Source of the DNA: a virus
Direction: 5' to 3' (one strand)
Virus record (IMG/VR): IMGVR_UViG_2788499801_000001
Location: 1-36,118 of that record
Length of the DNA stretch: 36,118 nucleotides
The translations under genes were made by a program, and so were the position numbers. Of the stretch, positions 14,279-15,890 are shown piece after piece. How positions within the stretch are numbered: position 1 is the stretch's first letter; each line of letters starts with the position of its first letter. The notes under the pieces are model-generated. The model was not told where the DNA came from, did not search any database, and saw only the letters and a list, made by a program, of their open reading frames with translations.

Positions 14279-14482
14279 TCAGATAAGCCCCATTTTTCGT
14301 TCAAGATAAGCCACATATTCCGGCGACCTGGTTGCATGTAGCCGCGCATGTTCAGCACACAATCTGCGTTGTTCTTTTTTGTCTGTTGCGTACGGTTGAG
14401 CGTTTGTGAGCATGGTTAATCTATGCTCAAGTTTCTGGTCGGCAATGGTTGGTTTGTATGCTGGTATTGCTGCGAGATTCAT
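14279..14482 (-). CDS. Hypothetical protein
   Basis: 67 aa. ATGA overlap with the upstream methyltransferase stop. Confidence 0.6.
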   Translation of the reverse strand: MNLAAIPAYKPTIADQKLEHRLTMLTNAQPYATDKKEQRRLCAEHARLHATRSPEYVAYLERKMGLI

Positions 14483-15252
14483 TCGAATAACCTCCCCTGG
14501 GCTTGCGCTGCTTCGATTCTTTCACATGCAATATCGAAATACTTTGGTTCTATCTCTATGCCGATAAATTTGCGCCCAAGATTGGCGCAGGCTACGCCCG
14601 TGCTTCCACTGCCCATGAATGGATCAAGAATCACATCAGATGGATATGCTGCTATCAGTTCTTCAGAAAAGCCAACAGGAAACCGGGCCGGGTGGTCAAA
14701 GTCCCGCCTCATTTCCCTATTGACGCGGATAACTGAATCACTGATTCGGTGAGTATTTACCATGTCACCAGCACCCGTGGCTTTTGATGACGTACCATCT
14801 TTTTTTGTCAGTGCTGTGTTTGAAATTTTCCGGCCTACACTTACGCATTGCTTTGTTTTGTTTGGTTGAATTGGTTTATGGCAAAAGTGGAGAATAAACT
14901 CAAACGATGGTGCTAATCTCCCACTCCAATTGCCAGGCAAACCAAAACCCTGATCCCATACATACCAACCAAACCACGGCATTGCCGCATCAAATAAACC
15001 GCGCCAATATTCAATAGGCGATCCGTTCTTATGCACCAATCCAACATTTATAAACACCTGTGTTTCATCATGGCACGGAATAAGGTCAATAAATTTCTGT
15101 GCGTCCTTCCAGTCAAAATAATCGCCCTCATACTCTCTCTGGTTTGCATATGGCGGCGAAGTCACCACCGCATCAACCTTGTCCAGTGTTGGCAGGATTT
15201 CCAGGCAGTCGCCCAGGTACAAAGTGGCATCGCCTATGCGCTCAATTCTCAT
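14479..15252 (-). CDS. Beta-class DNA methyltransferase, SPPY type (N4-cytosine-like signature)
   Basis: 257 aa. Motif IV VVTSPPY is N-terminal. HPARFP (as I recall in M.PvuII-type enzymes) and AdoMet motif I [10 protein letters not shown] are C-terminal. This is the N6_N4_Mtase family order IV-TRD-I. Confidence 0.85.
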   Translation of the reverse strand: [257 protein letters not shown]

Positions 15253-15890
15253 TCAAATAACCTACCCTGTGCCTGTGCTGCCTCGATTCGCTCACAGGCT
15301 ATGTCGAAGTATTTGGGTTCGATTTCTATGCCGATGAATTTGCGTCCTAGATTGGCGCAAGCTACTCCGGTTGTGCCGCTGCCCATGAAGGGGTCAAGGA
15401 TTGATTTACCTTTAACCCACTTAAAGCACCACTCCATGAGTGATAAAGGTTTTTCTGTTGGATGTTGTTTGCCTCTATATTCTATAGCTGCTTCACATTG
15501 AGCCAACCTATATGTTCTTACTGGTCTATCTAAGTTCGACCATGCCATTTCTGCTTGTGCTGTTGACCATGTATCAGGTTGTTTTTTATCCCACAATAGC
15601 CAACATTTAGCGGGGGGTAAATTGAAATAATTTCCGCCCCATATAACAACTTCTCCAGCTAGGCTCGGAAATGTTTCGACTATTTTAGGCGGTTCTGCAT
15701 TCCATGACATAGTTTCGTCAGGGTGAAATTTCCATGTACTTAACTTACCGCCACCACCGCCGGAATGATTCGACCCAATCCCATAAGGTGGGTCAGTCAC
15801 AACGGCATCAACCTTGTCCAGTGTTGGTAATATCTCAATGCAATCACCCAAATACAGCGTAGCGTTGCCGATAATCACTGGTTCGTTCAC
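15249..15890 (-). CDS. Beta-class DNA methyltransferase, DPPY type (N6-adenine-like signature)
   Basis: 213 aa. GTG start with AGGGTGA SD. Motif IV VVTDPPY, HPTEKP (CcrM/HinfI-like) and motif I [10 protein letters not shown]. The last 48 aa differ by one residue from the paralog downstream. Confidence 0.85.
   Translation of the reverse strand: [213 protein letters not shown]

Follow-up and report, generated by a model that had tools for sequence, protein, structure and literature searches.

Tandem Methyltransferase Genes at the Locus

The window analyzed here is the whole 36,118-nucleotide stretch of IMG/VR virus record IMGVR_UViG_2788499801_000001, which derives from an uncultured temperate-type phage without a close cultured relative; a megablast search of the locus against the INPHARED phages gave no match. 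The minus strand carries two adjacent genes for small DNA methyltransferases (MTases), termed B and, downstream of it, A, which are nearly identical at both ends and strongly divergent in their centers (Table 1). The original prediction, made from the letters alone, had described the two genes as joined by an ATGA overlap, which is borne out by the sequence at the junction. Two additional JGI contigs, which come from different samples, show the arrangement without a single base changed, so that an assembly chimera or artefact is ruled out.

Table 1. Coordinates of the methyltransferase genes, their modules, and flanking features in the window (aa, amino acids; nt, nucleotides; ORF, open reading frame; TRD, target-recognition domain; AdoMet, S-adenosylmethionine; HTH, helix-turn-helix)
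Feature	Position	Strand	Description
MTase B	15249..15890	(-)	213 aa; GTG start; DPPY at residues 33-36, HPTEKP, FMGSG at 168-172; ORF and PF01555
MTase A	14479..15252	(-)	257 aa; ATG start; SPPY at residues 32-35, HPARFP, FMGSG at 212-216, IGIE at 230-233
A, N-terminal scaffold module	15147..15237	(-)	ends in SPPY; direct repeat D2
B, N-terminal scaffold module	15782..15872	(-)	ends in DPPY; partner of direct repeat D2
A, C-terminal AdoMet-binding module	14482..14631	(-)	50 codons; motifs I-III and tail
B, C-terminal AdoMet-binding module	15252..15401	(-)	50 codons
A, core ("cassette")	14632..15146	(-)	residues 36-207; catalytic motifs, TRD, HPARFP; motif IV (S32-Y35) just upstream at 15148-15159
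B, core ("cassette")	15402..15781	(-)	residues 37-163; catalytic motifs, TRD, HPTEKP; motif IV (D33-Y36) just upstream at 15783-15794
23-nt exact repeat, A copy	15170..15192	(-)	CCAACACTGGACAAGGTTGATGC; codons PTLDKVDA, seven identical codons
23-nt exact repeat, B copy	15805..15827	(-)	inside an otherwise synonymously saturated N-module
ATGA overlap, B stop/A start	15249..15252	(-)	window letters tcat, read directly
ATGA overlap, A stop/67-aa ORF start	14479..14482	(-)	sequence and ORF list; ORF at 14279-14482
Cro/YdaS-like HTH gene	15921..16151	(-)	first in operon with both methylases; PF15943 E 5.7e-4, below cut-off; PHROG 35 (transcriptional repressor) E 1.4e-5
Promoter-like hexamers	16158..16186	(-)	TTGACT-17-AATACT with TG; precede the Cro-like gene; matched by consensus only

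Family, Fold, and Catalytic Motifs

Both proteins are beta-class DNA amino-methyltransferases. The PF01555 (N6_N4_Mtase) profile matches A with 90.8 bits (E 1.6e-25, profile positions 1-219) and B with 80.8 bits (E 1.9e-22), against a gathering cut-off of 26.7 bits, and both match PHROG 67 over their full length. The motifs follow the beta-class order in each protein, i.e., IV (D/SPPY) close to the N-terminus, TRD, then I (FxGxG, here FMGSG) and II (IGIE) close to the C-terminus, and III, and the invariant columns of the family alignments are all occupied, 35 in A and 39 in B (50-sequence alignment). AlphaFold2 models built from these alignments reached a predicted local distance difference test score of 87 for both proteins. 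Foldseek searches against the PDB placed beta-class enzymes alone in the top ranks, with the rotifer N4CMT best for A, followed by CcrM and M.BceJIV, with M1.HpyAVI, CcrM, and M.BceJIV best for B; E values lay between 1e-11 and 1e-13, and template modeling (TM) scores were ~0.55-0.67 to N4CMT, CcrM, M.BceJIV, M1.HpyAVI, M.PvuII, and M.RsrI. Sequence searches of the PDB gave matches mainly in the C-terminal module and did not separate templates that form N4-methylcytosine (4mC) from those that form N6-methyladenine (6mA). Short-peptide searches around HPARFP, which M.PvuII may also carry, and around HPTEKP returned no matches, a literature search on these motif strings found nothing, and a scan of GTDB with the A-type profile yielded distant or partial matches only, in mixed taxa, mostly metagenome-assembled genomes of Alphaproteobacteria.

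The central regions of A and B share ~20% identity, and A has ~45 extra residues. The original prediction had considered these regions unrelated; however, both proteins are full-length members of PF01555 and PHROG 67, and their family profiles are aligned end to end by hhalign with a probability of 100%, albeit with low confidence in the center. The two centers are homologous, although strongly diverged.

SPPY is the motif of most bacterial N4-cytosine enzymes and DPPY that of the N6-adenine beta enzymes (PMC8885841, PMC2890505), and replacement of SPPY by APPA in N4CMT abolished the formation of 4mC (PMC8885841). A search of 5.8 billion proteins returned thousands of homologues for each gene, of which the top 120 of each, ranked by overall similarity to the window proteins, were compared; these close homologues define the A-type and the B-type in what follows. 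Motif IV is SPPY in 118/118 A-type sequences and DPPY or DPPF in 119/119 B-type sequences, and the HP motif is mostly HPA..P in the former and mostly HPT..P in the latter. The contrast drawn in the original prediction, in which SPPY with HPARFP denotes N4-cytosine and DPPY with HPTEKP denotes N6-adenine, agrees with the published rule and with the conservation of these motifs. Furthermore, the best structural match of A, N4CMT, is a proven 4mC enzyme. Judged from motif and fold, A is most likely an N4-cytosine enzyme and B an N6-adenine enzyme, with different target motifs.

Shared Ends under Purifying Selection

A BLASTP comparison of A with B (E 4e-47) places the similarity mostly at the two ends. 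The last 50 codons encode 49/50 identical residues, the sole change being S/T; a codon-by-codon count finds 28 nucleotide differences, with 26-27 codons differing synonymously and one non-synonymously, and an in-register count without the stop codon finds 29 differences (121/150 identical). The N-modules up to (S/D)PPY are identical at 25/28 residues and 62/84 nucleotides. A direct-repeat search recovers the same two segments, 14479-14631 versus 15249-15401 at 81% and 15147-15237 versus 15782-15872 at 75%. The near identity of the N-terminal ends is thus confirmed, and the earlier figures for the C-terminus (48 residues, ~30 differences) prove essentially right, with all differences but one or two being synonymous.

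In a codon-aware Nei-Gojobori comparison, the proportion of synonymous differences (pS) is 0.84, i.e., saturated, in the C-module, and that of non-synonymous differences (pN) is 0.013; the N-module gives pS 0.78 and pN 0.077. Since pN is as low as 0.013 while the synonymous sites are saturated, the ends of A and B have been under very strong purifying selection (dN/dS, the ratio of the non-synonymous to the synonymous rate, ~0.01 or less), as had been supposed for the AdoMet module. The ends constitute a split AdoMet-binding part, of which the C-terminal end contributes motifs I-III and the N-terminal end the GD...VDAVVT strand that leads into motif IV.

This conservation reaches well beyond the window. 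The consensus is identical at both ends between a 51-sequence A-type and a 50-sequence B-type alignment, and C-module identity amounts to 35.9/50 among A-type sequences, 36.9/50 among B-type sequences, and 36.1/50 across the types. For 105/234 sequences (45%), a C-module of the other type is as close as any of their own type or closer, strictly closer in 67 cases. A-type and B-type proteins also have tail variants in common (AAYAQGR, NAQRQxR, and xAYKQPD, the last with a 12-residue extension). When the larger protein set was compared, 49/50 C-module identity was reached by three other cross-type pairs from unrelated contigs; in two of these pairs, the B-type member (P0224 and P0169) is the only methylase of its contig. 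The closest relatives of A (L001, L002, and L087) and of B (L003 and L088) likewise occur as single methylases. On these comparisons, the near-identical ends are a property of the whole family, not special to this phage. In one of the loci with a lone B-type enzyme (L003), an MT-A70 family methylase lies ~1 kb upstream (L003 1829-2410); phages of this group combine methylases from different families.

Separate Histories of Core and Scaffold

A and B are 89% identical in the N-module, 20% in the center, and 98% in the C-module. A and Gp24 of Acidithiobacillus phage AcaML1, an SPPY enzyme with HPAVFP, are 29% identical in the N-module, 44% in the center, and 30% in the C-module. These patterns are opposite, and a single tree cannot yield both. 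The core of A (residues 36-207) was searched alone against 1.84 billion representatives, which gave 116 near-full relatives, with SPPY in 106/106 of those with an identifiable motif IV. The ends are unrelated to the family scaffold in 112/116 (13-28/50 in the C-module and 1-6/24 in the N-module), most of these proteins being ~440 aa long, like the ParB-fused AcaML1 enzyme; family-type ends are present in only four, whose centers are equally distant from A (~41-42% identity). A scan of IMG/VR with the A-type alignment, which gave the first hint of a mosaic, had returned mostly an SPPY clade with unrelated ends and did not help to locate arrays. Within each type, the identity of the center is uncorrelated with that of the C- or N-module (Spearman -0.06 to 0.01), and the identities of the N- and C-modules are correlated with each other (Spearman 0.27 and 0.45 for the two types).

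The histories of center and ends are incongruent, which is the pattern expected of TRD movement. Scaffold and core have had separate histories across the family, and the A-type enzymes are chimeras, with a core from a large SPPY clade and ends from a B-like (DPPY) family. The cassette-style exchange of cores on a common scaffold proposed in the original prediction is therefore supported at the level of the family and for the origin of the A-type; within this phage itself, no such event was seen.

Plain ancient paralogy, in which one ancestor with constrained ends and drifting centers gave rise to both genes without any exchange of modules, is improbable. It would explain that the two profiles align end to end, and that the ends, which form the AdoMet pocket, belong to the best-conserved part of PF01555 enzymes generally, where the PDB matches concentrate. 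However, it is incompatible with the opposite identity patterns of A/B and A/Gp24 and with the unrelated ends of nearly all relatives of the center, and the ends are devoid of subfamily signal, their tail variants and extensions being common to both types.

Arrays and Co-Resident Copies

Two or more members are held by 6/85 loci with family-type modules. Locus L080 has three ATGA-coupled genes (2602-3321, 3318-3941, and 3938-4705) with a shared start, the end KRIKDAQAQP.LFH, and different centers; their ends are lineage-specific, 45/50 to each other and at most 40/50 to anything else. In the first of these genes, the 3' end consists of three copies of a 30-nt unit (EVKAQPNLFH x3; L080 3217-3318), placed precisely where the next gene joins, a pattern suggestive of slippage or unequal exchange at this shared C-terminal module. 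Locus L091 (144-2648) has three consecutive PF01555 methylases of 228, 234, and 278 aa, one of them A-type, with HETQKP, HPCPKP, and HPAIFP, respectively; they share the N-terminus VKEPVIIGDA.LWLGDCR and near-identical C-modules, and their C-terminal extension is identical in two of the three genes and differs at 4/15 residues in the third. In locus L007, an SPPY gene and a DPPY gene lie 1.4 kb apart, and a 199-nt direct repeat of 92% identity (2074-2272 and 4313-4511) spans the 3' end of the upstream gene and the N-module of each methylase. This repeat is a direct trace of segmental duplication, by which two genes came to have the same start and different cores.

Co-resident copies tend to share their scaffold, which fits duplication followed by core replacement. 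In the window, the partner gene is the closest C-module among ~325 compared (49/50 versus at most 47), a margin of two or three residues only, and cross-contig pairs reach the same level.

A different reading of this tendency is that concerted evolution or a shared constraint keeps the scaffolds identical, either by gene conversion or because both proteins have one partner, be it each other in a heterodimer or the same factor of host or phage origin. In the window and in all L080 pairs, the co-resident gene is the nearest neighbor, and in L091 it ranks first or in the top five. In addition, the 23-nt exact repeat lies in the N-module; with codons chosen at random, a run of at least 23 nt would arise with P = 0.003 in that module and P = 0.03 in one or the other module, and the patch could be left over from an exchange or be due to chance. 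Beta-class MTases also act as homo- or heterodimers (PMC7544214). Against this, gene conversion would homogenize the DNA, whereas the synonymous sites of the C-module are saturated, and equally similar scaffolds exist in phages with a single methylase. The dimer interface of N4CMT comprises residues 172-264 (PMC10406627), which by offset would map to residues ~100-198 of A, i.e., inside the variable core and not the ends; a heterodimer formed through the shared ends was set aside on this offset mapping. Little credence is given to concerted evolution or shared constraint as a whole.

The synonymous differences in the shared DNA had been described as recoding, with possible selection against homologous deletion between the repeats. 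In a simulation, two codings of the same two peptides were sampled independently of each other according to the codon usage of the window, and identities of 115.2 ± 3.7 of 150 nt were obtained for the C-module; the observed 121/150 is not below this value (probability of a simulated identity at least as high, 0.08; at least as low, 0.955), and the longest exact run of 11 nt is at the simulated expectation. The C-module DNA has no detectable homology beyond the demands of the protein, and it is not more different than chance, so that the notion of a greater-than-random difference was rejected. Moreover, exact runs of 31-43 nt are retained in L080 and of 20-32 nt in L091; thus, the avoidance of long repeats is not a general requirement. 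A recent duplication or graft of the scaffold in this phage, followed by selected synonymous changes that block recombinase deletion of one methylase, could account for the co-resident partner being the closest C-module (46-47 at most for all others), for none of 2734 between-genome pairs with saturated synonymous sites standing at 49/50, and for the short C-module runs, but it is weakened by the simulation, by the persistence of L080 and L091 at 83-89% nucleotide identity with runs of 20-43 nt, by the 23-nt run in the N-module, and by the three 49/50 pairs from unrelated contigs, and is hardly likely.

Proposed Mechanism

The explanation that we favor, and hold to be probable as a whole, is that A and B are two orphan MTases with different cores on a family-wide scaffold, the A-type being a mosaic. 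Each protein consists of a split scaffold, i.e., ~30 N-terminal residues up to motif IV and ~50 C-terminal residues, around a core of 130-175 residues; throughout a large phage methylase family, this scaffold hardly varies. The AdoMet pocket is provided from the ends (motif I, the acid of motif II, the aspartate of GD, and the histidine of HPxxxP). The core contains the residue with which motif IV begins, along with the other catalytic motifs, the loops for target recognition, HPxxxP, and, by homology, the dimer interface, so that each core would bring its own catalysis, recognition, and dimerization. Both window genes carry near-consensus versions of this one scaffold, whose DNA has diverged to synonymous saturation and whose protein is held by selection. 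With 6mA made by B and 4mC by A, early and from one transcript, the phage DNA would be guarded against two sets of host restriction enzymes. The swapping of cores would proceed by recombination at the conserved ends.

Several points weigh against this explanation. The SPPY rule covers most N4-cytosine enzymes, not all (PMC8885841), the putative assignment of the bases comes from motif and fold, and Foldseek hardly separates 4mC from 6mA templates, with TM scores of ~0.6 throughout. Ongoing exchange would call for DNA similarity of ~90% or more with long exact runs, and the window offers 81% and 75% with runs of 11 and 23 nt; the runs of L080 and L091 go part of the way. The selection of the top 120 by overall similarity could flatten the correlations (collider bias), to which the center-only search and the Gp24 comparison are not subject. 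The nearest relatives of A and B sit singly in their contigs. A cross-type pair with low synonymous divergence, which would have been a direct sign of recent swapping, was not found. The two scaffolds in the window are too diverged in their DNA to recombine with each other now.

A bolder extension is that the split scaffold serves as a pair of recombination handles for the exchange of whole cores, switching 6mA/4mC and target motif at once, and for the stacking of genes into ATGA-coupled arrays of two or three, as an anti-restriction cassette system; this is possible but rather doubtful. If scaffold plus core is the true architecture, a phage could change or add a protective modification, even the modified base, by replacing the middle of a gene alone; metagenomic methylases could be read by the rule that the ends denote "family" and the center "specificity"; and a natural chassis would be available for methylases with engineered core swaps. 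If, less likely, the ends are handles, a cassette system may exist in a large clade of phage methylases that has not been described to date. The implication of the window alone is more modest: the phage DNA probably contains both 6mA and 4mC, which bears on host-range prediction, cloning, and sequencing.

Gene Neighborhood

Both methylase genes end in GAATGA, and B, A, and the 67-aa ORF are chained through ATGA overlaps; this ORF has no family match. AGGG is located seven bases upstream of the GTG start of B. The early operon comprises, in order, the Cro-like gene, B, A, the 67-aa ORF, a replication initiator (PHROG 9474), and DnaB. From this layout, B and A are probably made together and translationally coupled through the ATGA. 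No gene for a cognate restriction endonuclease adjoins the methylases, their neighbors being the Cro-like gene, the 67-aa ORF, the replication initiator, and DnaB, and both are thus classified as orphans; no further methylase motifs were found elsewhere in the window.

Divergent promoter-like hexamers occupy positions 16152-16280, flanked on one side by the Cro-like gene (-) and on the other by a 181-aa gene (+, 16281-16826) without a family match. The plus-strand hexamers, TTGACT/TATAGT (10/12), are at 16197-16225 and the minus-strand pair at 16186-16158, all being consensus matches only, and the number of promoter-like sites is not above the shuffled expectation. The layout resembles that of an immunity switch. 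Elsewhere on the minus strand, a 582-aa protein (32278-34026) has an ART-PolyVal ADP-ribosyltransferase domain (PF18760, E 4.5e-9, residues 417-548), a type known in polyvalent proteins of phages and conjugative elements. A Pfam scan of ten large ORFs (383-7128 and 20957-31049, -) left nine without a match (652, 535, 592, 709, 498, 390, 369, 354, and 204 aa). The phage is poorly related to anything described.

Comparison with Known Systems

At the level of fold, motif order, and the DPPY + HPTxKP signature, B resembles CcrM, M.BceJIV, and M1.HpyAVI, and its description as CcrM/HinfI-like in the original prediction is accurate to this extent. Beyond it, the likeness fails: the identities are 22-26%, and the target motif of these enzymes is not transferable to B. 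The NCBIfam CcrM equivalog profile scores B at 64 bits against a cut-off of 830, matching residues 140-206 only, and B, which ends ~45 residues after motif I, has no counterpart of the C-terminal non-target-strand-binding domain of CcrM (213 aa versus 366 in CcrM chain 6pbd_A). B as an orthologue of CcrM/HinfI (GANTC) was accordingly rejected.

N4-cytosine MTases were reportedly proposed by Bujnicki and Radlinska in 1999 to be polyphyletic within the N6-adenine beta enzymes. Window gene A is likewise an SPPY enzyme closely tied to DPPY enzymes, and N4CMT is its best structural match; however, the tie in the window is a mosaic, in which an SPPY core is combined with the scaffold of a DPPY family, and not a gradual divergence. 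N4CMT itself "clusters with phage MTases" (PMC8885841, PMC10406627).

The movement of modules has its nearest described precedent in Type III mod genes, whose mobile target-recognition domains recombine at DNA encoding conserved motifs and give incongruent trees (Furuta & Kobayashi 2012, PMC3467074). The window enzymes share with them the incongruent histories of the center and the rest, as well as recombination in conserved-motif DNA as the proposed mechanism. They differ in being small orphan phage enzymes without a Res subunit, and in that the segment exchanged takes in HPxxxP as well as the residue of motif IV and so probably changes the base (6mA versus 4mC), not only the motif. The alleles of modM also have conserved ends and variable centers, but their ends are 91-97% identical in DNA (PMC6241649), compared with only 75-81% in the window.

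Tandem SPPY + DPPY pairs are already known in cultured phages. Gp24 and Gp25 of AcaML1 (L254 2476-5291) are an overlapping pair of beta-class enzymes with SPPY/HPAVFP and DPPY/HPTMKP; however, they are ParB fusions of ~430-510 aa on another scaffold, with ParB-like N-domains that are 60% identical and C-modules that resemble each other (46%) more than they do A or B. In the p096/p097 tandem of Rhizobium phage 16-3, only p097 is related (49% identical to B), p096 being unrelated in sequence. No literature describing the small-scaffold family or its arrays was found, which is absence of evidence only. Compared with the known cases, what is new is that the exchanged unit includes the catalytic signature and thereby probably switches the modified base.

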